Source: Eledone cirrhosa (taxonomy: Eukaryota). Taken from it: a stretch of 64,000 nt of DNA. Shown here one piece after another: positions 337 to 64,000 of the stretch. The stretch is from positions 178,436,001 to 178,500,000 of the forward strand of contig OZ024740.1 of NCBI GenBank assembly GCA_964016885.1. Reading direction: 5' to 3'. Each line of letters opens with the position of its first letter. Within the stretch, counting starts at the first letter, position 1. Made by a program: the position numbers and the translations under genes. The notes beneath the pieces are model-generated. The model saw nothing but the letters and a program-made list of their open reading frames with translations. It did not search any database and had not been told where the DNA came from.

Positions 337-1199
337 CTAGTGGGGTGTTTTAACTACGATGTTTATATCATCAACGTAGCGGTAGTATATTATCAGGGTT
401 AAGGGATCTTCTAATTGTTCTTTAAGTTTAAGTTTAAGTCTACTGTCCCACCATACCATGAATAAGTTAGCTATGTCGCCTGCAATGCTAACACCAATGG
501 CTGCTCCTTCCTCTTGGGCATATGTTTTTCCATTAAATTTGAACATATGTTCGTTAAGGGTTAATTTTATGCTGGCCCCCACCGCATGTGCAATCATTTT
601 CTTTAGTTCATCGTGGTTTTCGGGGGTCCGTATGACTCTGGTCCACCCGTTCCGTCTCTCTGTGTGGGTTTTCTTGGCCATTGAGGTAATGGTAGGTGGT
701 CTGCCTCTTGCTGGTCTTGTAGGGCACAGGTTGCTAAGGTCATATGTGTCTAGATAATTATTACTATAGGTAAGTTTAAGTAGGAGTCCCAGCTCACTGG
801 TATCAATCCCACGGAACTCAACATTGCTCTCACTCATCATTTCTACACAATTCTCCACAGCAAAATCCACGTCAATAGATGGATACAGGGCCACAACATC
901 CATACTACCTATTATGCAGTTTGTTAAGTCCCTAGATCGGTTACTCTCGCCGATTCTGCTGAGGAGGTCCTCCGTGCTGTCACATACATCTGGGGACATT
1001 TCAGTGATGGGCGTATGATCAGAGAGAGGAAGTAGGACAGTCTGTAGTTACTAGCAATGTTAGCTCCACAGACTGGCCGTGTTGGTGGTCCCGTGACAGG
1101 GTCACTGCTCGTTTTATTGTCTTTTCGAATCCCATACAACGCTGGCACGTCATTGTTCCAGGCCTGGAAGTTGTTGGCAGTCCTCTTGTTGGGCTGCAT
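337..1199 (-). pseudogene. Penelope-type reverse transcriptase fragment
   Basis: RT motifs DVxxLYPSI, GxAIG and RYVDD are split by frameshifts. Confidence 0.88.
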
Positions 1200-2996: not shown

Positions 2997-3524
2997 ATGT
3001 GTGTATGTATGTGTATTATATATATATATATAATTATATACAAAGATATTACATATTTAATATCATTTTACTCCAGGAACTTGTTGAGTGCTCTAAATCA
3101 GTTATAAATATTTATATTTTTATTTATATTTGTCGTATTTACAACCCTTTGAATACTGCCTCCACTTTTTTATATATATTTTTATTTATGTGAATGTATG
3201 TATGTGCGTGCGTATGTATGTGTACATATGCGTTGTGTGTATGTATGTATATTTTTCTATATAAGTAATTATTTATATATATATGTGTGTATGTGGTTGT
3301 ATGTATTTTTTCTCATGTATATGTGTGTGTGAGTGTATTTTTTAATATATGTATATACACCTTCATTTGTATATATGTACCTATACGTGTGGTTGAGAGT
3401 ATATGCGTGCGTACGAGTGTGTATGCACGTGAGTATGTATATGTGTGTATATGTTGTGTGTGTATATATATGTATATACATATGTATGTTTATATGTATA
3501 TATGTATATATATGTATATATATA

Positions 3525-4506
3525 TATCAACTAGAAATAGATTGACATATATATATATATAAAATAAACATATGAAACAATCTCAGGAAATAATTTGTAA
3601 AGTGTGTAAGCACACATAGCGAGGTAGGTAACTAATTAAAGTTTAACTAGAACTTCAAATATAGATACCCTTTAAAATGATTAATCTCCTTTGTAAATAT
3701 TTCTTTAAGTAAGAAATATATTTCACCTATTAATCCGTAAATCACAGCAGTTAAATTCTTGGATGTTCACCAAAGGAGAAGAAGATAACCATCTACGTTT
3801 ACAAAGCAAATGTGTGCTTACATTATTTACATATTATTCCCTGTGATTGTTTCATATGTTTATTTTATATATATAAATATGTCAATCTATTTCTAGTTGA
3901 TATGTAATGCTCGGATCTAATCTTTGAGCTTATTCTACGGTGGATATGGCGCATGTCTCTCAGACATGATAACCCTTAATTTTAATTTTGGATATATATA
4001 CGGCCCATTGATTGTTGAGCTAATTCAATTTAATAGGCTCTGCTGCTATATCTGGCTGTCGATGGTCCTATTCACGCCACTGGGATGACGTTGTGCAATG
4101 TGTGTATTTTTTTTAAAAATGCAACACGTGGTTCGAGTCATTCACAGATTTGCATTTGCTTTGTAAACGTAGATGGTTATCTTCTTCTCCTTTGGTGAAC
4201 ATCCAAGAATTTAACTGCTGTGATTTACGGATTAATAGGTGAAATATATTTCTTACTTAAAGAAATATATACAAAGGAGATTAATCATTTTAAAAAGGTA
4301 TCTATATTTGAAGTTTTAGTTAAACTTTAATTAGTTACCTACCTAGCTATGTGTGCTTACATTCGTTATAAATTATTCCCTGTGATTGTTTCATATGTTT
4401 ATTTTATATATATATATATATATGTCAATCTATTTCTAGTTGATATGTAATGCTCGGATCTAATCTTTGAGCTTATTCTACGGTGGATATGGGCAAATAA
4501 TTATCT

Positions 4507-4617: not shown

Positions 4618-4747
4618 ACACGCACACACAATAGATAAAACAAGAACATTCACAAGCCAAATATATATATATCAAATACAAATAATAAAATAAAGAATGA
4701 AATTCCTCTTCTCGTCTAATACGTTATGTACCTTATTATTTTTACTG

Positions 4748-4935
4748 ATTGGCAGTATTGGTAGAAAGTCAGATGCCATGCTTGGCAGCATAGAATTACG
4801 GTCCTTTACGGTCTGAGTTCAAATCCCGCTGAAGTTAACTTTGCCATTCATCCTTACGGGGTCGACAAAAGTAAGTACCCATCACGCACTGGGGTCAATC
4901 TAATCGACTTACCCCTCCCCCAAAATTGCTGGCCT
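4748..4935 (+). mobile_element. tRNA-derived SINE
   Basis: Same head and core as the 1210 copy. Confidence 0.85.
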
Positions 4936-9044: not shown

Positions 9045-9302
9045 TTCTCACTGCTATCGAAAAACCACTCCTTCAACTATTCTTCTAACAACTTCACCCC
9101 TTCCTCCTAATATTCTCTATAAAAACTAAATAGGTCCTCAGTAATATTATTCTGATGAAATGACAGTAAACAATAACATTGAAATATTGAATGTCTGCAT
9201 AACTAAAAGTTTGTAGATAGCTGTTTTAGGTTATGTAACTGTTATAGAAACACGTGTCAATAAATTCCTTTCAACTAAACTGTATCCATTCAAATCTTTC
9301 TA
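9045..9302 (+). mobile_element. Family F TA-terminated repeat (probable PLE 3' end) with HHR-like core at ~9145-9193
   Basis: Near-identical to 28897-29150 (-) and 29149-29320 (+); CTGATGA AATG..CATT GAAA, but stem I and the triplet are imperfect. Confidence 0.55.
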
Positions 9303-9640: not shown

Positions 9641-9922
9641 ATATATATTGTTTATACTTTGGGAGGGTCATGTTGCCAATAAGAAAAACACGCACCAAGT
9701 TGCTTTCACTTCAATTTATTATATATTTATAAATTTATAAATTTACAAATCTACAAACTTATAAATTTCTGGTTGGTTGGTTGGTTCCACAACCAGATAG
9801 TTGTTTATATATAGTCATAGTCCTTTCGTCACACACTCTGTGACCTCTTCAGTGACTGGGGATTCCTTTCTTTGTTTCTGTGCCTTTCCTTTCTTCTGTC
9901 CTACGCCATTTTGTTTCTGTGT

Positions 9923-11220
9923 GTTCAAATTTAATGGAAAAACATATGCCCAAGAGGAAGGAGCAGCCATTGGTGTTAGCATTGCAGGCGACATAGCTAA
10001 CTTATTCATGGTATGGTGGGACAGTAGACTTAAACTTAAACTTAAAGAACAATTAGAAGACAGCTTAACCCTGATAATGTACTCCCGCTACGTAGATGAT
10101 ATAAACATCGTAGTTAAGACACCCCCACTAGAGAACAGTCAGGAACTAGAGAAAAACACAATGGAAAGCATCCAGCAAAATAGCAAACTCCATCCACCAC
10201 AGCATTAGAGTCACTATAGACTACCCAAGTAGACACCCCAACCATCGATTACCTGTACTAGACACAGAGCTCTGGTTAGATACCATTAACAACCAAAAAC
10301 AAATCCTCCATTCCCATTATGCCAAACCCATGACTTCCAAACATCTGATCCACCGAAACTCGGCCATTTCGGACCATACCGAAATCAACATACTGATTGC
10401 GGATTTGGTACGGGTGATGAGAAATGTGTCCCGCATATGCAACCCCGAAGAACTAGAGAGACACATACAACACTTCATCCACCGTATGCAGTTCTCTGGC
10501 TACAATCAGAGAGATAGAATCAGAGTGTATAAAGGAGCCAGAACCAAATGGGAAAAAATGGTAAATAATGACATAAATGGGACCTGCCCCTTGTATAGGA
10601 GCAAATTTGGGAATAGAATAGAAAGAACTAGGAACAAGGCCAATAAAATAAACTCATGGTATGATAGCAATAAATACCAGAGTGTAATGTTCATCAATAC
10701 AACCCCTAGAGGCGAACTAGCCTACAAATTTAGAAGGGCCCTAAATAAACATAAACTCAATATTAAGATAGTAGAAAGACCAGGTACCTCCGTAAAAACA
10801 CTTATTAGCAAGACATACCCGTTCCAAAGACCCTCATGTATAGATAAGAAATGTATAACCTGTAAAATAAGCCACCATATTAACTGTATAACTAGAAATG
10901 TAGTGTATAGCATAAGATGTACTGATGGATAATGTAGAAACAAAAATATAGTGTACATAGGTGAGACAGCTCGTAGTATAGGGGAACGGATAAATGAACA
11001 CTGGCGAGACCTTCAAGATAATAAAGAATCATCTGTACTCTACCAACATGCTAAGATAGAACACAAGGGTAAATTAGAGAACATAGAAATAAAAATAGAA
11101 TCCACACACAGAAAAGATGCAATGTTTAGGCAAATTACAGAGGCAGTAAGCATAAAAGAATTACAACCAAAATTAAATAGAAAATATGAGTGGAACAGCA
11201 ACATCACAACTTACAATTAA
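9923..11220 (+). pseudogene. PLE RT/GIY-YIG endonuclease ORF, disrupted
   Basis: Frameshift near 10177 and a premature TAA at 10930 relative to the 62687-63964 copy. Confidence 0.88.
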
Positions 11221-11424
11221 GGACAGAATGAAAACACACACACACATAGAACAAACAACCAACCAACAACATGTAAATAAATAAACAAATAGATAAATGA
11301 ACACAAACACATACAGACACTCGGATGTGGCGCATGCGCAAACTGAGCACACACCACACACACAGAAACAAAATGGCGTAGGACAGAAGAAAGGAAAGGC
11401 ACAGAAACAAAGAAAGGAATCCCC

Positions 11425-11469
11425 AGTCACTGAAGAGGTCACAGAGTGTGTGACGAAAGGACTATGACT
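11425..11469 (+). ncRNA. Minimal type I hammerhead in the Naiad-like 3' UTR
   Basis: AGTCA CTGAAGA g GTCACA gagtg TGTGAC GAA AG ga CT A TGACT. Copies at 9813-9857(-), 40700-40744(-), 41795-41838(+), ~44027-44070(-), 45287-45331(+), 62345-62389(-). Confidence 0.78.
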
Positions 11470-11711
11470 ATATATAAACAACTATCTGGTTGTGGAACCA
11501 ACCAACCAACCAGAAATTTATAAGTTTGTAGATTTGTAAATTTATAAATTTATAAATATATAATAAATTGAAGTGAAAGCAACTGGTGCGTGTTTTTCTT
11601 ATTGGCAACATGACCCTCCCAAAGTATAACAATATCGGTTTCAACACACGATTTCAGATAAAGAATCTTGCTAAACAAATTCAGAAACGAAATATATATA
11701 TATATATATAT

Positions 11712-13692
11712 GTAGGAGGTGAGTTTTATTGTAGTACAATAAAGCAATGCAGATATCGGATAAGAAGCACTCTACAGTTTGTAGGACTGGAGTATACATA
11801 ATATAAGATCAAAAGATAGTTAAAGGAGTTCCATGTATTTTATTATGCGCATTTCAAAAACAAACATCATCATGCAATAATATTTGTGTTTTCATCAGAT
11901 AAAACAGGAGAACATGATATGAAGGCTAAAAAACACTTGTGGATAGTGCAGTTTTAAATCAACATATGAAAAGTGGTTTTAGATTGATGTGTGATATTGG
12001 GAAAAATATTTTATTTAGAGAGGGGGGGGGGGTGGAAAGGATGAAAAAGGGGAGGAGATGAGAGGGAGAGATGGGTGATAGAGAGAAAGAGATAGTTTTT
12101 ATAACTGAGAGGAGATATATTGTTTTACATAGAGAGTTTGAAAACCGTTGGAAGATAATGTATAAATTAAAGGAATTTGAAAATTAACGAAGGGAATTTA
12201 TGTATGAAGATAGAGAGAAGAAATAATAATTGTGGATGAATATTCTAACGTCAAAAAAAGGGTATGTTGATAAGTATTGTGGCAATTTCAAAATTAACGA
12301 AGAGAAAAATTATTAAGGTTTGTGTGTAGAAGGATTTGAGAAAAATAATGTGAAGTTAAAGTTTGTATATTGGAGGAATTGATAATATATGCGAATAAGG
12401 AGTTAATATGTATTAAGAATGAGTTCGTTGATGGGGAGAAAAAAATAATAAATTAAGGATGAAATTGAGATTAAAAAGATTTATGATAGAGAGAAAAAAA
12501 AAATGATTGCGGATGAATATTCTAACGTCAAAAAACAGATGCATATGTTATGAAGGATTTTACAAGGTGAAGATAGAATGAGGGTAATGAGTAAACAAGT
12601 ATTATAGAGTGTATAATGCCCTTTAAAGTATGGTAGGAAGATGGGTATATTTTAAAGAGGTGTATGTATATGTGCCTTTGAGAAAAGATTCTAAATTGAT
12701 AAAGAATTGAATATTAACTGTATACTTTGTGAAAAGTTCTATGGAATTTATGCAGGCAGATAGAAAACAAATCTGTACGTCTATTTATTATAGAATCTAG
12801 GTTAGAGATAATGGTAAATTTTTCATTTAGGCAGAGATTACAGATTTTAGATAGAGAGCTGTTCAAGTATGAGGATGCAGAAGAAACCTTCTTCCAAAAG
12901 ATGGTATATTTAATGTTTTTGTCGTTTAAGGACCATATGAGTTCTGAGAGAGCAGTGTTGGTTCTTTTAAGTTCTTCGTTAATTTTGAAATTGCCACAAT
13001 ACTTATCAACATACCCTTTTTTTGACGTTAGAATATTCATCCACAATTATTATTTCTTCTCTCTATCTTCATACATAAATTCCCTTCGTTAATTTTCAAA
13101 TTCCTTTAATTTATACATTATCTTCCAACGGTTCTCAACCTCTCTATGTTAAACAATATATCTTTCTCTCAGTTATAAAAACTATCTCTTTCTCTCTATC
13201 ACCCATCTCTCCCTCTCCACCTTCACTCTCATCTCCTCCCCCTTTTTTTCATCCTTTCCACCCCCCTCCCTAAATAAAATGCTTTTTCCTCGCACATATC
13301 CTCCTTTCGTTAATTTTCAAATTTTTTTAATTTATACATTATCTTCCAACGGTTTTCAACCTCTCTATGTAAAACAATATATCTCCTCTCAGTTATAAAA
13401 ACTATCTCTTTCTCTCTATCACCCATCTCTCCCTCTCATCTCCTCCTCTTTTTCATCCTTTCCACCCCCCCTCTCTAAATAAAATATTTTTCCCAATATC
13501 ACACATCAATCTAAAACCACTTTTCATATGTTGATTTAAAACTGCACTATCCACAAGTGTTTTTTAGCCTTCATGTCATGTTCTCCTGTTTTATCTGATG
13601 AAAACACAAATATTATTGCATGATGATGTTTGTTTTTGAAATGCGCATAATAAAATACATGGAACTCCTTTAACCATCTTTTGATCTTATAT
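11712..13692. mobile_element. PLE family 2: head-to-head inverted pair of 3' ends (GIY-YIG C-terminus at ~12714-12975 on -)
   Basis: TALSELIWSL..KICNLCLNEKFTI..IINRRTDLFSICLH; arms 11795-12300 and 12978-13690 are reverse complements; homologous to 36272-39990. Confidence 0.85.
13588..13656 (+). ncRNA. Type I hammerhead, palindromic stem III ATGCGCAT
   Basis: GTTTTAT CTGATGA [stem II] GAA ATGCGCAT A ATAAAAT. Copies at 11837-11905(-), 39887-39957(+), 60695-60765(-), 60804-60874(+). Confidence 0.85.
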
Positions 13693-13914
13693 TATATATA
13701 TATATATATATTCGATATGTGAATAATCACAGCTGCAAATTGTTTTACTTCTGTTTAGAAGAATTTCATTTTGCCAAATATCAATCATGGTGAATTTGTA
13801 CATATAACCATGCTAAGGATTGTTGACAAACATAAACACATTAAATTACAGAGATATGGAGGTTATATAGACCTGCTTCCACACAGTTTTGTCTACTAAA
13901 TTCTTCTCAAAAGA

Positions 13915-14096
13915 TAATTGTTTCTACTTTTGGCTCAAGGCCAGCAAATACCCACTGTATTACTGGTACTTTATTTTATCGATCCGGTAAGGATGAAAGT
14001 CAAAGTTAACCTTGGCGGGATTTGAACTCAGAATGGCAAGGGCCGTAACTCTACGCGTCAAAGCATGGCGTCCGACCCTCTACCGATACTGCCAAT
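13915..14096 (-). mobile_element. tRNA-derived SINE
   Basis: Reverse complement of the SINE consensus. Confidence 0.88.
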
Positions 14097-14115: not shown

Positions 14116-17100
14116 TCAGACGTTATGAGTAGAAACACAGAGAGTAATCGAATCCGGAACGACGTACTTGTGGAATGAACCTCTCAACCCCGGGATCATG
14201 CTTGTATTCATTATACAGATACTCACAATATTGTTTATAGCTCCAAATGCAACAGCTTCTTCCACCTCTCTTGCGTCAAACTCACAAGGCGCATGTCGGA
14301 CTCCTGCACCGGTGGCACTGCCCATCATGCTTAACTACCCTGACACCGCAGGTGGTCACGGGCGCCCAACCCAACGGAGACCTGAAACCACTCGACTCGG
14401 AGGATGTCTGGTAGCGATCTCCCTCCTCAGGCAGTCGCGGAGAGTCATCACCAGGATCTCCAAGTCTGCCCGCACTCTCGTGGCTGAAACACAATCGACT
14501 TCAATCGACCGAGCGCTTGACTCGGGCGATCCACGGGACTGGACCGAACTATTCAGTTTTGCTACTCTCGTACTCGGGATCCCGTTGATAGGGAATCCGA
14601 TGAGGAGAGACAGGTCTGACCCTCCCTGGCTTCGAGGCTCAAGGGCAATGTCGCCTCTTCCTGCGACCCTTCATCCGCGAACCTCTCGGCACACTCGTGC
14701 TGCCCACCAGTGCCAACTCAATGCCCCCAATTCACCCCGACAGCACGAAACATCTCAAACTAATTGAGGGCGACGTTCGTGTGCTGGCCTCAAGCGACGC
14801 TGAGCTCAGACCAACAAAAGATGTTTTGTCAGCGTTTCGGCTCAAACATCCGGACTCTTTTGCCGACATCCGGGACGCTCCAGACCCGGCCAGCAATCTC
14901 TCCCCAGCAGCGTCCAGCGAGGACGTGGTAGCCGTCCTAAGATCTTTTCCTGCTTGAGCCCAAGTCACCTCCGAGACCTCATCTCGTCTTACGCGGCGGA
15001 AGCAGGGGCCCGACTGCTCCAGTCATTAACAGCCCTCTCTAACTGTCTCCACTGCACCAGCTTGCCCAGCCATGCCAGCAATCATTTCTTCTCAGCCAGC
15101 CTGACGACCCTGAGGAAGAATGAAGGAGGAGTCCGCCCCATTGTGGTGGATAACGTCATCCGACGACTTGCAGTCAAGAGAGCTTGCAAGTCAGTCAAAG
15201 ACGACTTGAGAGAGGTACTAAGCCCTGTCCAACTCGGAGTGGGAATCAAGTGCGGTTGTGAGGCCGCAGCTCATGTGGGCAGACACTGCATGGAACATGC
15301 GCCTCCCCAGTGACCCCACCTTGTAAAGCTGGACATGACTAACGGCTTCAACAGCGTTTGACAGGATCACGTCCTAGAGACATGTCTCAGACGAACCCGC
15401 TCCATATACCCCACCTTCACTTTTCGCACAGAGAACCAAGCTCACTCATGGCTGCTGACAACAGAGTTACTTCCACCAGAAGTGTCCAGTAGGGGGCCCC
15501 ATTCGGCACGCTCCTATTCGCGCTGGCAATCGATGATGTAGCGCGATGGGTCTGGTCACCACTCAACGTTCTGTACCTCGTCGACGCGATCCTGAGCAGT
15601 CCGGCTGAGATAGTAGTTGAGTACCTTCGACAAATCATCCCAGCTCTAAAGCTCCTTGGACTTGATATCAACCCAACCAAGTCTGAGGTGACCAACATCA
15701 GCTACGGAGAAGCTGAATTCCGCAATGTCGTAATATGCTCCCGTCCCATCCCGGCCGGGTCTGCAAGGGCGCTGCATTCATTCTCAGTTCCCACATTCTC
15801 CCGAAAGCCATAAGAGAATGCCTGGAGACCAAGCATGCGGATTCGACCCGATTAGCCAAGCGGCTGTTCCTCATTGACGCTCATCCTGCGCTCTTCCTCT
15901 TGAGGAACTGTTTCACCCTCGCCAAATTCACATTCACCCTGTTCGGTGCACCTTGCCACCCCCACAATGATCTTCTTGTGGAACTTAATTTCACCATTCG
16001 ACGCTGTGCGGAACTCATCTGCAATGTCAGTTTCGAGAGCGCAGGCTGGCAACAGGCGACACTCCCAGCGAGGTTTGGGGGCCTCAGCCTCCGGTCATCT
16101 TCGGATCTAGCTATACCTGCCTACCCTTCCTCTATCTCCTACTGTCACGCTCTCGTCAGCGAGGTTCTCAGCCAGACGGCTGAATCTGACCTGGCCCCTG
16201 AGATGGAACAAACTCTGGCCTACTGGACAGGTGAAGACCTCTCTATCCCACAGTATACTACGGTCCAACGTAACTGGGACAACATCAATTGCAGGTCTTC
16301 TGTCAGGCGGATCAAGTTGGCTTGGACCAACACCACCTCGCCTGCCTCCGTTCCACTTCTCAGCCCAACAGCGGCGCGCGGCTCAATTCGGTGCCCTCCT
16401 TATCAACTGGTACCCTTCTTGATGATGAGTGCACTCGCATTGAATTAGCCCAACGCCTTGGCCCCTCGTATGTGAGCCTCATAAATGCCGCTGCGAGGCG
16501 GTTGTTGACAAGTTCGGCTTGCATCCTCTGTCTTGCCGCCAAGCGGAGGCTGGTTCCCCCGACACGCCGCTCTCAATGACATAATAACAAGGAGCCTGGA
16601 CGCAGCTGGCTTTCCATCTCAACTGTAGCCAGCAGGCCGAGACCACGGAGATGGCAAGCGCCTCGACGGAATCAAGCTCTTCCTATTTGAAGGGGGTAGA
16701 TCCCTCATCTGGGATGCCACCTGTTGCAAAACTTTCTTCGCCTCTAACTTAGTTGCTTCGGCCACAAACCACGGCATCGCGGCCTGCCTCGCAGAGGTAT
16801 GTAAAATAAACAAATATCGGGGTTTCTCCAGAAGATTCCTTGTCGCACCGGTCGCCGTCGAGAGCTCAGGCGTACTTGGACCCCATACTGCCGAGCTCCT
16901 CCTTAAGATCGGAACGTCGGTAGCCTGTCTGAGGAGGGAGGCCCGTGAGGCTGGTTGGCAGTTGCAGCGGTTGTCACTAGCTATCGCGGGGCGCAGCACT
17001 TCTTCCCCCTTGCCCTAGGCGCAAAGTCCAATCACCCTCCCCTTCACTCCTCCCTTTTTCTACGATACCAGAGCTCTTGCCTTTCCACCCCTTCCCTTCC

Positions 17101-17195: not shown

Positions 17196-17376
17196 ATTGG
17201 CAGTATCGGTAGAAGGTCGGACGCCATGCTTTGCAACATAGAATTACGGTCCTTTATGGTCTGAGTTCAAATCCCGCCGGGGTTAACTTTGCCTTTCATC
17301 CTTGCGTGGTCGATAAAATAAAGTACCAGTAATGTACTGGAATAATTGGTGACCTTGAGCCAAAAGTAGAAACAAT
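17196..17376 (+). mobile_element. tRNA-derived SINE
   Basis: Matches the SINE consensus. Confidence 0.88.
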
Positions 17377-17599
17377 TATTATTATTATTATTTTTACTGT
17401 AAATAAAAAGTTATAAAGTTTACATTGTTATACATCAACTTATTTCCCCTCTCTCTTCTTTCTCTTCTCTTTCTCTCTTAATGTCAACAATGAATAACAC
17501 TTATAATATGAAAACAGAAAACATCCATACACACATATAGACATACACATATATACATATATACACACACTCATGTTTTTATATGTGTATGTCTATACC

Positions 17600-28851: not shown

Positions 28852-28896
<45 letters not shown>

Positions 28897-28899
<3 letters not shown>

Positions 28900-29427
28900 A
28901 GATTTGAATGGATACAGTTTAGTTGAAAGGAATTTATTGACACGTGTTTCTATAACAGTTACATAACCTAAAACAGCTATCTACAAACTTTTAGTTATGC
29001 AGACATTCAATATTTCAATGTTATTATTTACTGTCATTTCATCAGAATAATATTACTGAGGACCTATTTAGTTTTTATAGAGAATATTAGGAGGGAGGGG
29101 TGAAGTTGTTAGAAGAATAGTTGAAGGAGTGGTTTTTCGATAGCAGTGAGGTCCTCAGTAATATTATTCTGATGAAATGACAGTAAATAATAACATTGAA
29201 ATATTGAATGTCTGCATAACTAAAAGTTTGTAGATAGCTGTTTTAGGTTATGTAACTGTTATAGAAACACGTGTCAATAAATTCCTTTCAACTAAACTGT
29301 ATCCATTCAAATCTTTCTATTTTTCTCCGGATTACTTTTGGAACTACAACTGGAACCGTCGAGCAAACTCTACGTGAGCTGATAATCTACTGTGTGTAAT
29401 ATTTATATTACAACACAACGGAAAATA

Positions 29428-32960: not shown

Positions 32961-33044
32961 TACTGATTTAGCTGTCACACAATCCGTAGGTTTTGATTTT
33001 ACCATCGATTCCAAGGGTCCAGGTTAGTTATATATATATATATA

Positions 33045-34024
<980 letters not shown>

Positions 34025-36271: not shown

Positions 36272-39200
36272 CATCAGATAAAATAGGGATACATGATATG
36301 AAGCTTAAAAAACACTTGTGAATAGTGAAGTTTTAAATCAACATATGAAAAATAATTTAAGATTGATGTATGAGATTGGGAAAAAGTGAGGGGGGTTGGA
36401 AAAGGTAAGGAAGAGGAGAAGATGAGAGTAAAGAATGGTGGGGGAGGAGTATAAGAAGGAAGGATGAGAGAGGAGGAGAGATGGGTGATAGAGAGAGAGA
36501 GATAGCCTTTACAATTGAGAAAAAATATATATTGTCCCACAGAGAGAAGTTAAAAAGCCGTTGGAAGATAATAGATAATTTAAAAGAATTTGAAATTAAA
36601 AGTTAATGAGGTTTATGCATGAAAAGAAAAAGCGATTAAGAATAATTTAAATTAAGGTTTGTATATTGAAGGGTTTAATAATATGTGCGAGGAAAAGAAA
36701 TTATTAATATGTATTATTAAAATTAAAATAATAATGTTATTAAGGATATAATGTGAAAAGAAGTAGAAGAATGAATGAGTTATGAATTTAGAGGAATTAG
36801 TTAGGGTTTAAGTTTGTTTTTATGTAATGTAATATGTGTGCGTAATATGTGTACGTAATTAGTTTGTTTAAAAATGAGCGCAGAAGGCAAAGAAGAAAAT
36901 AATCTTTAAGGAAGAAAATATCTAACATCAAAAAATATATATGTTTACGAAATATTTTCTAATGGTAATAATATAATATATTAAAAGAAATTAGTCGGGA
37001 TTTAAGTTTGTTTTTATGTATTGTAATATGTAAAAGTCAAACGAGCATGAAAGGATGAGATAAGGAATTTAAGGAAGAAAAATCTAACGTAAAAAAAAAT
37101 GTTTATGTTTACGAAGGATTATTAAAGGTAATTAAAAAAATAATAATAAGTACAGATTAGAGGTTAGAAATTAAAAGAAAAGAGGAAGAAAGGAAAGTGA
37201 TAAAGAGGAATGATATAGAACGAGTAACTTGTATTATATAATATATAATAAATAATATTGAAATAAGGTAGAAAGATGGGTATATTTTTAAAGGTTATAT
37301 AAGCCTTTGAGAAAAAGGATTTTAAACTAGTAAGGTATTAGATATTAGCTGTATACTTTATGGAATGTTATGTGGAATTTATGCAAGCAGAGAGGAAATA
37401 AATCCGTGCGTCTATTTATTATAGAATTAAAATTAGATATAATGGTAAATTTCTCAGCTGGGGAAATATTACATGTTCTGGATAGGGAGGCATTCAAGTA
37501 GGGAGAGGCAGAACAAACTTTTCTCCAAGAAAAGTTATAGTTAATATTTATGTCTTTCAAGGACCATATGAGTTCTGAGAGTGCCGTGTTAGTTCTTTTA
37601 AGTTGGTATATAAAAGACGAATTGTGATTATAAAATCTAGCTTTGAAGGAGGTGGAAGTGGTACCGAAATAAGCGAGGGAATAAAAATATCTTCGATGCT
37701 AACGCCAATTACTATAATAATGCGCTTTCTAAAGCCGGTTATCCTGATAAAATTAAATACAGTAAAGAACCCAATCCTAGAAGGTCTTACAGTAAAATAA
37801 TTAATTAGGATCATTCCAATAACTTAAATAAAAGACCTAGATACAAAAATATAATCTGGTATAATGCTCCTTTTTCTATTTCTATTAATAATAATATTCC
37901 TAAACTATTCTTTAGGGCCTTAGATAAATGCTTCCCTCCCTCACATATCTATAGTAAAATCTTTAACAAACATACAATAACATTTTCCTATTCCACTTCC
38001 TCCAACATCTCTAACATTATCTCTAAACACAACAATAAAATATTAAATATTAAATCACATCCTTCCAACACTGAGCGTCATAATAATAGCAGTAGTACTC
38101 CCGACGTCATTGTTAACTCTAGGCTAGATTCTGTAAATTCAAATACGACGTCAAACGTAACTTCGTTGAATGTTCATAATACCAATCTAAATCAGGAAAC
38201 TATTATTCCTATCGTAAATAACTTCTCCAATCCAATTCCTACTATAAATAACAATAGATCACTTGTTAATAACTCTGTTAATTTCTCTAATCGCAATTGT
38301 AATTGCCCTGTTAGAACTAAATGTCCTCTCAATAACCATTGTCTTGATAAAAAACTTAGTCTATGAATGTAAGGTTATAACTGATACCAATTCCTTTACC
38401 TATTTCGGTTCCAGCTTCACCTCTTTCAAAGCTAGATTTTATAATCACAATTCGTCTTTTAGATACCAACTTAAAAGAACTAACACGGCACTCTCAGAAC
38501 TCATATGGTCCTTGAAAGAGAAAAATATTAACTATAACATCTCTTGGAGAAAGGTTTGTTCTGCCTCTCCCTACTTGAATGCCTCCCTATCCAGAACATG
38601 TAATCTTTGCCTAGCTGAGAAATGTACCATTATATCTAATTTCAATTCTATAATAAATAGACGCACGGATTTATTTTCTCTCTGCTTGCATAAATCCCAC
38701 ATAACATTCCATAAAGTATAGAGCTAATATCTTTACTAGTTTAAAATCCTTTTTCTCAAAGGCTTATATATCTTTAAAAAATATACCCATCTTTCTACCT
38801 TATTTCAATATTATTTATTATATATTATATAATACAAGTTACTCATTCTATATCATTCCTCTTTATCACTTTCCTTTCTTCCTATTTTCTTTTTAATTTC
38901 TAACCTCTAATCTGTACTTTTTCTTCCTAACTACTTCACAATTCTTATTTTTACTCACCACAACATTATCCATTCTTCCATCTTTCCTTATATCATTGGC
39001 CATAAAAATTATTATTATATTTTTAATACATTATAGTATTACCTTTAATAGTCCTTCGTAAACATAAACATTTTTTTTTGACGTTAGATTTTTCTTCCTT
39101 AAATTCCTTATCTCATCCTTTCATGCTCGTTTGACTTTTACATATTACAATACATAAAAACAAACTTAATCCCTAACTAATTTCTTTTAATATATTATAT

Positions 39201-40490: not shown

Positions 40491-40549
<59 letters not shown>

Positions 40550-40556
<7 letters not shown>

Positions 40557-42044
40557 ATACTTTGGGAGGGTCATGTTGCCAATAAGAAACACACGCACCA
40601 GTGTTTCACTTCAATTTATTATAATAAATTTATAAATTTAGGAATTTATAAATTTCTGGTTGGTTGGTTGGTTCCACAACCAGATGGTTGTTTATATATT
40701 GTCAAAGTTCTTTCGTCACACATTCTGTGACTTCTTCAGTGACTGGGGATTCTTTTCTTTGTTTTTGTGCCTCTCCTTTGTTCTGTCCTACGCCATTTTG
40801 TTTCTGTGTGTGTGTTGTATGCTCAGTCTGCGCATGCGTCATATCCGGGTGTCTGTGTGTGTTTATATTCGTTTATTTATTTGTTCATTTACATGTTACC
40901 GGTTGGTTGTTTGTTCTATGTGCGTGTGTGTTTTCATTTTGTCCTTAATTGTAAGTTGTGATGTTGCTGTTCCACTAATATTTTCTATTTAATTTTGGTT
41001 GTAATTCTTTTATGTTTATTGCCTCTGTGATTTGTCTAAACATTGCGTCTTTTCTGTGTGTAGATTCTATTTTTATTTCTATGTACTCTAATTTACCCTT
41101 ATGTTCTATTTTAGCATGTTGGTAGAGTACAGATGATTCTTTACTATCTTGAAGGTCTCGCCAGTCTTCATTTATCCGTTCCCCTACACTACGAGCTGTC
41201 TCACCTATGTACACTATATTTTTGTCTCTACATTGTCCTTCAGTACATCTTATGCTATATACTACATTTCTAGTTTTACAGTTAATATGGGGGCTTATTT
41301 TACAGGGTATACATTTCTTATCTATACAGGGGAGTCTTTGAAAAGGGTATGTCTTGCTAATAAGTGTTTTTACGGAGGTACCTGGTCTTTCCACTATCTT
41401 AATATTGAGTTTATGTTTGTCTAGGGCCCTTCTAAATCTGTAAGCTAATTCACCTGTAGGGGTTGTATCGATGAACATTACACTCTGGTATTTATTGCTA
41501 TCATACCATGAGTTTATTCTATTAGCCTTATTCCTAGTTCTTTCTATTCTATTCCAAAATTTGCTCGGTTACTCTCGCCGATTCTGCTGAGGAGGTCCTC
41601 CGTGCTGTCACATACATTTCAATGATGGGGCGTATGATCAGGGAGAGGAAGTAGGACAGTCTGTAGTTACTAGCAATGTTAGCTCCACAGACTGGCCGTG
41701 TTGGTGGCGCAGACTGAGCACACAAACACACACAGAAAGAAAATGGCGTAGGACAGAACAAAGGAGAGGCACAAAAACAAAGAAAAGAATCCCCAGTCAC
41801 TGAAGAGGTCACAGAATGTGTGACGAAAGAACTTTGACAATATATAAACAAGCATCTGGTTTTGGAACCAACCAACCAACCAGAAATTTATAAATTCCTA
41901 AATTTATAAATTTATTATGATAAATTGAAGTGAAACACTGGTGCGTATGTTTCTTATTGGCAACATGACCCTCCCAAAGTATAACAATATCGGTTTCAAC
42001 ACACGTTTTCAGATAAAGAATCTTGCTAAACAAATTCAGAAACG

Positions 42045-43550: not shown

Positions 43551-43756
43551 TGAATAATTCGCTTCTAGTGTAATTGTTATTTTTAGCACGATAAGATTTT
43601 CTATACATGCCTTTTTGGAAAATTCTTTCAAAGAGGTATGATACATAGCCTATTGTATTGCTTTTAAGATAAATTACTCTATTTTGAGCTGTGTTTAACT
43701 TCTCCACCTAGCTTTATAATTTTAATATTGTTTTTGTAACAAACGATATTTATTTT

Positions 43757-43792
<36 letters not shown>

Positions 43793-43794
<2 letters not shown>

Positions 43795-45500
43795 TTTCGT
43801 TTCTGAATTTCTTTAGCAAGATTCTTTATCTGAAAACGTGTGTTGAAACCGATATTGTTATATATTTGGGAGGGTGATGTTGCCAATAAGAAACACACGC
43901 ACCAGTGCACTCCAATTTATTATAAATAAAAAAATCTTTCTAAAATTTTTTCAAAAGTTTTTTTCAATAAATTTATAAATTTCCGGTTGGTTGGTTGGTT
44001 CCACAACCGGATGGTTGTTCATATATTCTCAAAGTTCTTTCGTCACACATTCTGTGACCTCTCAGTGACTGGAATTTTTTTCTTTGTTTTGTGCCTCATC
44101 TTGTTTTTGTGTGTGTTGTGTGCTTAGTTTGCGCATGTGTTACATCCGGGTGTCTGTGTGTGTTTTATTTGTTTATTTATTTGTTTATTTACATGTTACA
44201 GGTTGGTTGCTTGTTCTATGTGTGTGTGTTTTCATTTTGCCCTTAATTGTAAGTTGTGATGTTGCTATTCCATTCATGTTTTCTATTTAATTTTGGTTGG
44301 AGTTCATTTATGTTTATTGCCTCTGTGATTTGTCTAAACATTGCGTCTTTTCTGTGTGTAAATTTGATTTTTATTTCTATGTTCTCTAATTTGCCCTTAT
44401 GTTCTAGTTTCGCATATTGGTGGAGTATTGATGACTCTTTTCTATCTTGAAACTCGCGCCAGTGTTCATTTCACCGTTCTCCTATACTACGAGCTGTCTC
44501 ACCTATGTACACTATATTCATATCTTTACATTCTCCTTCAGTACATCTTATGCTATATACTATGCTTCCAGTTTTTCAGTTAATATGGGGGCTTAGTTTA
44601 CTGATTATGCATTTTTATCTATACAGGGAGGTCTTTGAAAAGGGTATGTATTACTAATAAGTGTTTTTATGGAGCTACCTGATCTTTCTACTATCTTAAT
44701 ATTAAGTTTAAGTTTATCTAGGGCCCTTTTAAATTTGTAAGCTAATTCACCTCTAGGGGTTGTATTGATGAACATTACACTCTGGTATTTATTGCTATCA
44801 TACCATGAGCTCTGTGTTTAGCACAGGTACCTGTATTAGACACTGATCTCTGGTCAGAAACCATTAATAACAAAAAAAAATCCTCCATTCCCATTATGCC
44901 AAACCCATGACTTTCAAATATACTAAAATAGAACATAAGGGTAAATTAGAGAACATAGAAATAAAAATAGAAACACAGAAAAGACGCAATGTTTAGACAA
45001 ATCACAGAATCAATAAACATAAATGAACTCCAACCAAAATTAAATAGAAAACCTAAGTGGAACAGCAACATCACAACTTACAATTAAGGACAAAATGAAA
45101 ACACAAACGCACATAGAACAAACAACCAACCAGTAACATGTAAATAAACAAATAAATAAACGAATATAAACACACACAGACACCAGGATGTAACACATGC
45201 GCAAACTAAGCACACAACACACACACAAAAACAAGATGGCGTAGGACAGAACAAAGGAGAGGCACAAAAACAAAGAAAAGAATCCCCAGTCACTGAAGAG
45301 GTCACAGAAAGTTTGACGAAAGAACTTTGACAATATATGAACAACCGCCCGGTTGTGGAACCAACCGGAAATTTATAAATTTTTGAAAAGATTTTTTGAA
45401 TAAATTTTTTAGAAACATTTTTTAATTCATAATAACTTAGAGTGAAACGACTGGTGCGTGTGTTTCTTATTGGCAACATGACCCTCCCAAAGTATAACAA
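43793..45500. mobile_element. Naiad-like PLE head-to-head pair, more diverged
   Basis: 43793-44810 (-) and 44820-45500 (+) both end at family termini in TA. Confidence 0.88.
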
Positions 45501-46288
45501 TATATATATATATATTTATATATATATATGAACTTTAAATTACGTGTTTAGTCGAAAATCATTCGAAGAGGTAAAAATGTTTCTTGTATTTTTTTTTTTT
45601 TTAATTAATTCTGATGAATCAAGTCATTTGTTCATATAATTAATGAAGTAAAAATGAAATATCTTTTATGAAATATCTTTTATGAAATGGAAGAAACGCG
45701 CGCTAATTAATCTTATTTTCAATATCTTATATATATATTTATCACTTTCGTATTTTGGCTCATATATAAGTATACACAGACTGATGTGGATGCTTACGTT
45801 AATCTAAAATATAGGGAATGATAATTATACACACATATACACATATATATATATGCACATATGCAAATGCATATCAACGTGTATATACAGATACATATGT
45901 ATACGAATACATACAGATACACACACACACACACACGCCCATATACATATACACACACACACATATATATATATATCAGTTTCAGGAGATCCCGCTTAGG
46001 GTGAAAGCAGAAATGTATTGCTTAAATTTTTATTCTTTACTAATAATACATATTTGCTCAACAAATTTATATATACTTATATACGTATACATATACAACC
46101 CTTATCGAGTTCTCTCTGGATTTAGGTTCTTATTTTTATTATTACTATATATACACATACATTATTATTTTTAAAAATGTAGGAATAATAAAGCATGCAG
46201 AAAAGTCGGAAGACACAAACACAAGGACAATTCCCGCCCATCGGCTGTCTTTTGGGGACTATTATAGTTTCGGATCTTTTAATGCATG

Positions 46289-62047: not shown

Positions 62048-62127
<80 letters not shown>

Positions 62128-62131
<4 letters not shown>

Positions 62132-64000
62132 CGTTTCTGAATTTGTTTAGCAAGATTCTTTATCTGAAATCGTGTGTTGAAACCGATATTGTTATACTTT
62201 GGGAGGGTCATGTTGCCAATAAGAAACACACGCACCAGTTGCTTTCACTTCAATTTAATTTAATATATATTTATAAATTTACAAATTTATAAATTTCTGG
62301 TTGGTTGGTTGGTTCCACAACCAGATAGTTGTTTATATATATATAGTCATAGTTCTTTCGTCACACACTCTGTGACCTCTTCAGTGACTGGGGATTTCTT
62401 TCTTCGTTTCTGTGCCTTTCCTTTCTTCTATCCTACGCCAATTTGTTTGTGTGTGGGTTGCGTGCTCAGTTTGCGCATGCGCCACATCCGGGTGTCTGTG
62501 TGTGTTTGTGTTCATTTTTCTATTTTTCTATTTATATTTGTTTGTTTATTTATTTATTTATTGTTGGTTGGTTGTTTGTTCTATGTGTGTGTGTGTTTTC
62601 ATTTTGTCTTGTGTGTGTTTTCATTTTGTGTGTGTTTTCAATTGTAAGTTGTTTGTTCTATGTGTGTGTGTGTTTTCATTTTGTCCTTAATTGTAAGTTG
62701 TGATGTTGCTGTTCCACTCATATTTTCTATTTAATTTTGGTTTTAATTCTTTTATGCTTACTGCCTCTGTAATTTGCCTAAACATTGCGTCTTTCTTGTG
62801 TGTGGATTCTATTTTTATTTCTATGCTCTCTAATTTACCCCTGTGTTCTATCTTAGCATGTTGGTAGAGCACAGATGATTCTTTACTATCTTGGAGGTCT
62901 CGCCAGTGTTCATTTATTCGTTCCCCTATACTACGAGCTGTCTCACCTATGTACACTATATTTTTGTTTCTACATTGTCCTTCAGTACATCTTATGCTAT
63001 ATACTACATTTCTAGTTTTACAGTTAATATGGGGGCTTATTTTACAGGTTATACATTTCTTATCTATACATGAGGGTCTTTGGAACGGGTATGTCTTGCT
63101 AATAAGTGTTTTTACGGAGGTACCAGGTCTTTCTACTATCTTAATATTGAGATTATGTTTCTTTAGGGCCCTTCTAAATTTGTAGGCTAGTTCGCCTCTA
63201 GGGGTTGTATTGATGAACATTACACTCTGGTATTTATTGCTATCATACCATGAGTTTATTCTATTGGCCTTGTTCTTAGTTCTTTCTATTCTATTCCAAA
63301 ATTTGCTCCTATACAAGGGGCAGGTCCCATTTATGTCATTATTTACCATTTTTTCCCATTTGGTTCTGGCTCCTTTATACACTCTGATTCTATCTCTCTG
63401 ATTGTAGCCAGAGAACTGCATACGGTGGATGAAGTGTTGTATGTGTCTCTCTAGTTCTTCGGGGTTGCACATGCGGGACACATTTCTCATCACCCGTACC
63501 AAATTCGCAATCAGTATGTTGATTTTGGTATGGTCCGAAATGGCCGAGTTTCGGTGGATCAGATGTTTGGAAGTCATGGGTTTGGCATAATGGGAATGGA
63601 GGATTTGTTTTTGGTTGTTAATAGTATCTAACCAGAGCTCTGTGTTTATATCATCAACGTAGCGGTAGTATATTATCAGGGTTAAGGGATCTTCTAATTG
63701 TTCTTTAAGTTTAAGTTTAAGTCTACTGTCCCACCATACCATGAATAAGTTAGCTATGTCGCCTGCAATGCTAACACCAATGGCTGCTCCTTCCTCTTGG
63801 GCATATGTTTTACCATTAAATTTGAACATATGTTCCTTAAGGGTTAATTTTATGCTGGCCCCTACCGCATGTGCAATCATTTTCTTCAGTTCATCGTGGT
63901 TTTCGGGTGTCCGTATGGCTCTGGTCCACCCGTTCCATCTATCTGTGTGGGTTTTCTTGGCCATTGAGGTAATGGTAGGTGGTCTGCCTCTTGCTGGTCT
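62128..64000 (-). mobile_element. Naiad-like PLE (runs off the window end)
   Basis: Same termini, HHR and ORF as the other copies. Confidence 0.92.
62687..64000 (-). CDS. PLE RT + GIY-YIG endonuclease, partial, open frame with an internal in-frame deletion
   Basis: More than 425 aa open; RYVDDIN joins directly to TELWL, about 52 codons missing versus other copies. Confidence 0.8.
   Translation of the reverse strand, partial: RPARGRPPTITSMAKKTHTDRWNGWTRAIRTPENHDELKKMIAHAVGASIKLTLKEHMFKFNGKTYAQEEGAAIGVSIAGDIANLFMVWWDSRLKLKLKEQLEDPLTLIIYYRYVDDINTELWLDTINNQKQILHSHYAKPMTSKHLIHRNSAISDHTKINILIANLVRVMRNVSRMCNPEELERHIQHFIHRMQFSGYNQRDRIRVYKGARTKWEKMVNNDINGTCPLYRSKFWNRIERTKNKANRINSWYDSNKYQSVMFINTTPRGELAYKFRRALKKHNLNIKIVERPGTSVKTLISKTYPFQRPSCIDKKCITCKISPHINCKTRNVVYSIRCTEGQCRNKNIVYIGETARSIGERINEHWRDLQDSKESSVLYQHAKIEHRGKLESIEIKIESTHKKDAMFRQITEAVSIKELKPKLNRKYEWNSNITTYN

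Follow-up and report, generated by a model that had tools for sequence, protein, structure and literature searches.

The window analyzed here is a 64,000-nucleotide stretch of the Eledone cirrhosa genome (GCA_964016885.1, contig OZ024740.1, positions 178,436,001 to 178,500,000 of the forward strand). Near its start lies an insertion made up of a protein-less monomer, a partial tandem copy and an inverted arm, the whole of it surrounded by (TA)n. The monomer contains a predicted hammerhead ribozyme whose 3–8 core pair is G–C in place of C–G. The features are as follows.

3521–3812, minus strand: inverted 5′-truncated copy ending in (TA)n, with a second hammerhead at 3685–3779
3810–3949, plus strand: 5′-truncated end of the preceding monomer, 140 bases, head to tail, 94% like 4349–4492
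3950–4492, plus strand: full monomer, 543 bases, 32% G+C, longest stop-free frame 55 codons
4168–4185, plus strand: predicted 5′ strand of a pseudoknot, pairing with the first half of loop II
4186–4194, plus strand: 5′ strand of stem I, 9 bp
4195–4201, plus strand: core box GUGAACA, with G3 (4195) and C8 (4200) replacing C3 and G8
4202–4204, plus strand: 5′ strand of stem II (U10.1, C, C)
4205–4237, plus strand: loop II, 33 bases, with the predicted 3′ strand of the pseudoknot at 4206–4222
4238–4240, plus strand: 3′ strand of stem II (G, G, U11.1)
4241–4244, plus strand: core box GAAA (G12, A13, A14, A15.1)
4244–4270, plus strand: stem III, 11 bp, with a 5-base loop at 4255–4259
4269–4271, plus strand: AUA triplet, with cleavage predicted from the register to fall 3′ of A4271 (position 17)
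4272–4280, plus strand: 3′ strand of stem I
33044–33805, minus strand: copy of family B (a protein-less repeat of ~548 bases, alike in build and predicted pseudoknot but with a canonical C3–G8 core); 7 bases of the core are lost from this copy

At 4186–4280, three helices surround the core in type I order with stem I open, and stem I, GUGAACA, GAAA, stem III and AUA are all in exact hammerhead register, as had been claimed in an earlier note made from the sequence alone. A descriptor that allowed any Watson–Crick 3–8 pair and required stems of 8 + 8 pairs matched at this site only in the window and nowhere in 40 dinucleotide shuffles; when it was relaxed to 6 + 5 pairs, shuffles gave 0.05 matches per window. 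All nine pairs of stem I (4186–4194 with 4272–4280) are Watson–Crick. Stem III, which the note had put at 10–11 bp, pairs at 11 of 11 positions (4244–4254 with 4260–4270, A15.1–U16.1 included) and is stable and non-palindromic, which would fit action as a monomer. The core reads G3 U4 G5 A6 A7 C8 A9 (4195–4201) and G12 A13 A14 (4241–4243). U4, G5, A6, A9, G12, A13, A14, the A15.1–U16.1 pair and H17 agree with the hammerhead consensus; C3 and G8 are exchanged for G3 and C8, which keeps the 3–8 pair Watson–Crick. The 39 bases between A9 and G12 consist of U-C-C, the 33-base loop and G-G-U, such that stem II is a U10.1·U11.1 mismatch plus two C–G pairs. In place of the R10.1–Y11.1 pair usual at the base of stem II, U·U stands in all families, a feature that our search pattern fixes, although families A and B had shown it before that pattern was in use. 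The folding z-score of the 95-base motif is −3.45 (1 of 200 shuffles was as stable). By ViennaRNA, which cannot model a pseudoknot, stem II forms in the hammerhead register with a probability no higher than 0.01, and in the window copy a rival helix that ties up A9 is favored; the partner of that helix is present in only 2 of 15 representatives.

How might so short a stem II be held in place? The first half of loop II (4206–4222) is complementary to the 18 bases before stem I (4168–4185), and in the window copy the two would pair as 5 + 6 + 4 with a one-base bulge and a 2 × 2 internal loop; sister families have up to 16 pairs. The flank paired better with its own loop than with shuffles of that loop (p ≤ 0.05) in 16 of 22 hand-picked representatives, and p was 0.92 in family C, which served as control. 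Across 12 families, own pairs averaged −10.9 kcal/mol and foreign pairs −5.4 kcal/mol (permutation p = 5 × 10⁻⁵), with the own pair best in 6 of 12 rows and several losing to close kin. The pseudoknot of the window copy is among the weaker ones (−8.8 kcal/mol, p = 0.05). In an alignment of 13 representatives, 94% of cells pair, versus 35–55% in slid controls, figures inflated by the picking of these 13 to show the states of the 3–8 pair (C–G 4, G–C 4, U–A 4, other 1). The predicted pseudoknot changes sequence in step across families and probably braces a weak core. Folding may begin with the flank–loop II pairing; stem I, which is less than one turn, and stem II could then form inside the loop without a true knot. 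We also considered a nested fold, in which stem I is extended by pairing of the flank with the 3′ flank, and rejected it as weaker than the pseudoknot in 15 of 15 cases. In the account of Perreault et al. (2011; PMC3088659), pseudoknots stabilize ~40% of natural hammerheads and are needed for fast cleavage when stem II has one or two pairs, and U3–A8 and U10.1·U11.1 are natural variants.

Of 30 copies sampled by the stretch 3′ of the predicted cut alone, regardless of core, 23 reach the core, and these have G3 in 23/23, C8 in 22/23 and A9 in 21/23; the GAAA box has 0 changes in 116 letters. The swap is a natural family-level state and not decay, as the earlier note proposed, and the family consensus in these copies (G3–C8 in 22/23) is not the CTGANGA that would have spoken against it. 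Neither of the note's two arguments against decay is supported. The inverted arm at 3685–3779 (minus) does have the same core, with an A-to-U change at 16.2 that makes the triplet UUA and places U·U in stem III, but it lends no independent support because it is part of the same insertion as 4186–4280. The other, a GTGAACA in an "element A" read as a second G3–C8 hammerhead, falls away. We take element A to be 33319 (minus), a guess based on the lack of any further GTGAACA in the Penelope-like repeats of the window. That site lacks a stem I and belongs to the pseudoknot strand of the family B copy, whose true core, canonical in this family, lay 17–20 bases further on and is deleted there. Family B has 827 candidates in the genome and is also found at loci L032–L055; 26 of the 27 copies aligned have the core CUGAGGA, flanked by stems I and III of 8 and 5 bp, respectively.

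To count states of the 3–8 pair across the genome, the exact pattern N3-UGA-N-N8-A-UCC-(15–45)-GGU-GAAA was used, with the reversed pattern as control. UCC...GGU was chosen since family B shares that stem II; the pattern fixes the remaining core letters, and the counts inform on positions 3 and 8 alone. Matches were as follows, each followed by its control where there was one.

C3–G8: 941 versus 11
C3 with another base: 149 versus 18
G3–C8 with G before the core: 493 versus 2, the 100 listed matches all belonging to this clade
G3–C8 with another base before the core: 39 versus 8, including damaged copies, 8 of family C and chance matches
G3 with another base: 90 versus 131
A or U at 3 with non-G at 8: 3,083 versus 101
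A3 with any base at 8: 1,206 versus 59, nearly all family C
U3 with a base other than A: 135 versus 58
U3–A8: at least 1,742 (3,083 − 1,206 − 135)

Small C3·A8 and U3·G8 subfamilies have multiplied slightly. Six G3–C8 matches (L057, L058, L062, L065, L071 and L084) have no stems (0/6 intact) and were set aside as chance. The U3–A8 and many of the C3–G8 matches are homologous to the window monomer over hundreds of bases at 65–87% identity. An older group whose loop II sequences are nearly identical gave 60 matches, of which 49 are Watson–Crick at 3–8, versus ~21 expected under independence, in a hand count of copies that are related to one another (U–A 25, C–G 14, G–C 10, G·A 3, A·A 2, C·A 2 and A·C, U·C, C·U and U·G 1 each). 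With at least 7/8 pairs in stem I and 4/5 in stem III counted as intact, stems are intact in 39/52 G–C, 15/23 C–G and 17/23 U–A copies of the clade, and in 32/32 copies of family B, 4/4 of family D and 0/10 of family E, which has short stems. Stems I and III stay paired through differing sequences in families A, B and D. Three Watson–Crick forms of pair 3–8 have expanded in one lineage, and unpaired states are rare. This pattern of letters suggests that nature selects the 3–8 pair, and likely cutting itself.

Several other families touch on this search. Families D, E and F (L089–L092, L094, L096–L098, L100, L103 and L106–L110) carry the UCC...GGU stem II signature with canonical cores; in family E, stem I is short, stem II is longer and stem III, of 3 pairs, is palindrome-like. 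Family C (L118, L128 and L131–L136) matches the core pattern as A3·C8 in ~1,100 copies; we considered it as a mismatched ribozyme that nonetheless thrives and rejected this, as it has intact stems in 0/16, a pseudoknot no better than its loop shuffles (the p of 0.92 given above) and no likeness to the monomer. Its 5′ end is, we presume, Helitron-like. The units of a 35-base tandem array (G000:C3:354881690-354882343) hold core boxes of this hammerhead type in U3·G8 and C3–G8 spellings.

For the history of the swap, a tree was built from 51 copies (61 passed a coverage filter and 10 near-copies of the window subfamily were dropped) with positions 3, 7 and 8 masked. Seventeen of 19 G–C copies fall on one branch (support 89/94, not starred), together with three decayed copies; the two other G–C copies and two G·A copies lie in an unresolved basal spray beside C–G and U–A copies. 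A C–G group (100/99) is nested among U–A copies. A single origin of G3–C8 is not rejected (AU p = 0.325), and independent 3–8 changes on the tree amount to 1–3 pairs (sign test p = 1), too few for a proof of co-evolution. The series of spellings UUGAAAA, GUGAAAA, GUGAACA and GUGACCA, the last of which marks a commoner subfamily than that of the window copy, suggests a route from U–A through G·A to G–C. Four sequencing runs hold the element in their DNA reads and contigs, and in the matches listed (40 of 73), a set too incomplete to carry weight, neither 4195 nor 4200 shows a different letter; no RNA run was listed among those holding the element.

How does the repeat move? A first look gave 1,275 candidates in the 3.0 Gb genome, and the 40 that were scored are 96–100% identical. 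Among the 30 sampled copies, 3′ ends fall at monomer place 496–500 in 13 and at place 51 of the next monomer in 11; 5′ ends are scattered, and 7 of the 30 exceed one monomer in length. Same-strand cores are spaced 544–560 apart in 4 of 6 distinct values and 654–656 in 2 of 6. The 5′ truncation, inverted truncated arm, two alternative 3′ ends and (TA)n target are insertion marks given for Penelope-like elements (PMC8557442; PMC11167929), although the two 3′ ends described there are 30–40 bases apart and ours are 94 apart. As in retrozymes, no protein is coded, the monomer has one type I hammerhead and copies lie head to tail. None of the 30 copies starts at the predicted cut, and 5′ ends do not pile up there; every core-holding copy results from copying across the cut site, as would be expected of uncut RNA and of circles alike. 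A search for an autonomous partner, over 186 loci of ~3 kb each, found no reverse-transcriptase frame joined at a fixed place to this hammerhead, and Pfam, run on 7 frames of the window, named only one reverse-transcriptase fragment.

We put at about two in three the probability that 4186–4280 is a type I hammerhead with a natural G3–C8 pair, in a protein-less, Penelope-type (non-LTR retrozyme-like) repeat, and that it would cut its own RNA after A4271 as a monomer. In the mechanism we propose, the flank–loop II helix would be the stem I–stem II tertiary contact that holds the core in its active shape, compensating for the two-pair stem II, the U10.1·U11.1 mismatch and the swapped pair. G3–C8 would stand in isosterically for C3–G8. 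Because position 8 works through its 2′-OH (PMC8495972), any isosteric 3–8 pair could serve, at some cost in rate. The long stem III would permit cutting as a monomer, and a tandem transcript would be cut into ~543-base units that are then closed to circles. Copying of the circles into (TA)n would fall to an autonomous Penelope-like element, whose reverse transcriptase and endonuclease would prime at two internal sites, located 178 and 272 bases beyond the cut; synthesis would pass the re-ligated junction and sometimes go round more than once. Weighing against the proposal are the low predicted probability of stem II, the weak pseudoknot of the window copy, the absence of copies that start at the cut, the continued insertion of Anolis hammerhead mutants in vitro (PMC11167929) and the failure of 8 of 9 predicted Xenopus retrozymes to cleave in a 2026 preprint (bioRxiv 10.64898/2026.07.22.740005).

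A bolder version of this proposal goes further. Here a long-pseudoknot, monomer-active hammerhead would let the core walk among C3–G8, U3–A8 and G3–C8, with G3·A8, C3·A8 and U3·G8 as half-way states, all cutting fast enough to yield circles; thousands of such ribozymes would be invisible to CUGANGA and Rfam searches, and the paired swaps would show that catalysis is under selection in Penelope-type mobility. We hold this version tentatively, at slightly less than even odds.

One rival deserves serious attention, even if we think it unlikely. The motif may be a real hammerhead by descent whose G3–C8 form is a very slow cutter or inactive; the repeat would then have spread from uncut tandem transcripts, and the pair would be kept since the folded shape, through binding of a partner protein or protein-aided cutting, outweighs speed. 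The passage of all core-holding copies through the cut site, with 0/30 starting there, would fit this, and stem II is very weak. An Anolis element inserts in vitro without hammerhead cleavage and its hammerhead needs added protein, and C3G/G8C gives only partial rescue of a Penelope hammerhead (PMC11167929). Yet stem III is long and non-palindromic, unlike that of slow dimer-type motifs (PMC4209133). A difficulty for slow cutting is that three Watson–Crick pairs expanded and mismatches are rare, which is hard to explain without selection on the active conformation. It is in the active conformation of the hammerhead that the 3–8 pair forms.

A neutral accident, in which a master copy with a dead ribozyme gained two complementary changes and multiplied by luck, strikes us as improbable. 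Independent changes are few, a single origin is not rejected by the AU test and G3·A8, a possible half-way state, is present in 3 of 60 copies of the older group, all of which such an accident could accommodate. However, C–G, U–A and G–C forms require at least two such events, with both letters changed each time, and the G3–C8 branch went on to split into several subfamilies in which N7, loop II and the flank differ while G3, C8, stems and predicted pseudoknot are all retained. That the motif is a chance look-alike in an A+T-rich repeat is scarcely credible: Rfam has no hammerhead in the window among the matches listed (150 of 252) and the stemless, unrelated family C matches the same short pattern ~1,100 times, such that the pattern by itself proves little, but Rfam also misses three canonical C3–G8 sisters, family C has no intact stems, the stems, triplet and pseudoknot persist across families of differing sequence, the descriptor matched in none of the 40 shuffles, and the existence of canonical-core sisters largely refutes this reading.

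How does our proposed hammerhead compare with known ones? The type I hammerheads of Penelope-like elements (Cervera and de la Pena, 2014; PMC4209133) share its order and Penelope-style insertions, and the natural 3–8 change described there is U3–A8, with ~1,300 matches in Schistosoma; G3–C8 is not reported in the parts of that paper covered. Its fungal and protist variants have a long stem III as here and cut as monomers. The animal motifs are minimal, with stem III absent or palindromic, a G10.1–C11.1 pair and a long stem II, whereas ours has an 11-bp stem III, U10.1·U11.1, a two-pair stem II, a 33-base loop II and a long pseudoknot. Hammerheads in Perreault et al. (2011; PMC3088659) likewise use a Watson–Crick pseudoknot as the stem I–II contact with a stem II of one or two pairs; those pseudoknots have few pairs (six in the tested case) and ours 11–16, and here a single motif, belonging to an animal repeat of high copy number, unites all these deviations.

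Non-LTR retrozymes (Cervera and de la Pena, 2020, PMC7229834; bioRxiv 10.64898/2026.07.22.740005) resemble the repeat in their protein-less monomer, single type I hammerhead, head-to-tail copies and low G+C. They are thought to be moved by Penelope-like elements (same sources), and the preprint derives them from Penelope pseudo-LTRs. Our monomer has 543 bases, against 170–400 in invertebrates (PMC7229834) and 51–972 in the preprint. Retrozymes form long arrays, whereas this repeat occurs mostly as dispersed, 5′-truncated insertions of a single unit or 1–1.5 units with inverted arms; it also has a non-canonical core, unlike them.

Exchanges of the hammerhead 3–8 pair were reportedly treated by Przybilski and Hammann in 2007, and Penelope hammerhead variants by Lunse and colleagues in 2017. 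The literature searched, which those two papers lie outside, contains G3–C8 in the parts covered only as an engineered form. That C3G/G8C is an engineered compensatory mutant, as the earlier note stated, is confirmed there: the same two letters are changed, the single mutants are dead and the double mutant partly rescues (PMC11167929; PMC8495972; PMC3884650). What is a laboratory mutant in those studies is here fixed in ~500 genomic copies and several subfamilies. G3–C8 was found neither in the text parts of PMC3088659 nor by four GUGANCA words in its supplements, and a motif search in the partially covered supplements of three papers gave no G3–C8 core. A natural G3–C8 swap seems to be unpublished. 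The chemistry is not new, since tolerance of the swap in the laboratory was already known; the present case is distinguished by a series of three states within one lineage and by the long pseudoknot.

Why might this matter? The Anolis element inserts in vitro without hammerhead cutting, which brings into question whether Penelope-like elements need it; the spread in sister repeats of three Watson–Crick forms of a pair within the active core argues for selection on activity. The genome also offers a ready natural series of C–G, U–A, G–C and half-way states on a near-identical scaffold, and the motif adds a long-pseudoknot type I architecture. A standard CUGANGA search misses most clade members in this genome (~500 G–C and more than 1,700 U–A versus 941 C–G). 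The predicted pseudoknot, the U·U base of stem II and the C–G and U–A sister subfamilies are all absent from the earlier note, and the 4180–4290 transcript that it proposed for cleavage in vitro could give a false negative because most of the pseudoknot strand is removed.

Other elements are present in the window. Canonical CUGAUGA hammerheads of another Penelope-like family lie at 11898 (minus), 13595 (plus), 39895 (plus), 59226 (minus), 59334 (plus), 60757 (minus) and 60812 (plus). They are of the dimer type, in which stem III is short and palindromic, and have a stem I of 8 bp and a long stem II; protein fragments of the same family, with a GIY-YIG-like end, are at 37809–38721. Fragments of a Penelope-like element at 337–1047 (minus), 9801–11714 (plus), 40549–41568 (minus), 43746–45529 and 62060–64000 hold a reverse transcriptase (weak Pfam RVT_1) and a Cys-rich linker, followed by what we assume to be a GIY-YIG-like end; in the 3′ part of this element the only hammerhead-like match is a doubtful U3–A8 one at 45327. 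A repeat with CUGAUGA and GAAA boxes but weak stems is found at 9152 (plus), 29045 (minus) and 29169 (plus), with inverted arms at 28857–29320. A SINE-like repeat of ~190 bases has more than 10 copies (1209–1400, 4747–4935, 13914–14096, 17196–17380 and others). Finally, the stretch at 14129–17018 is G+C-rich with broken frames, 0 of 2 of which matched Pfam, and presumably resembles a non-LTR reverse transcriptase element.
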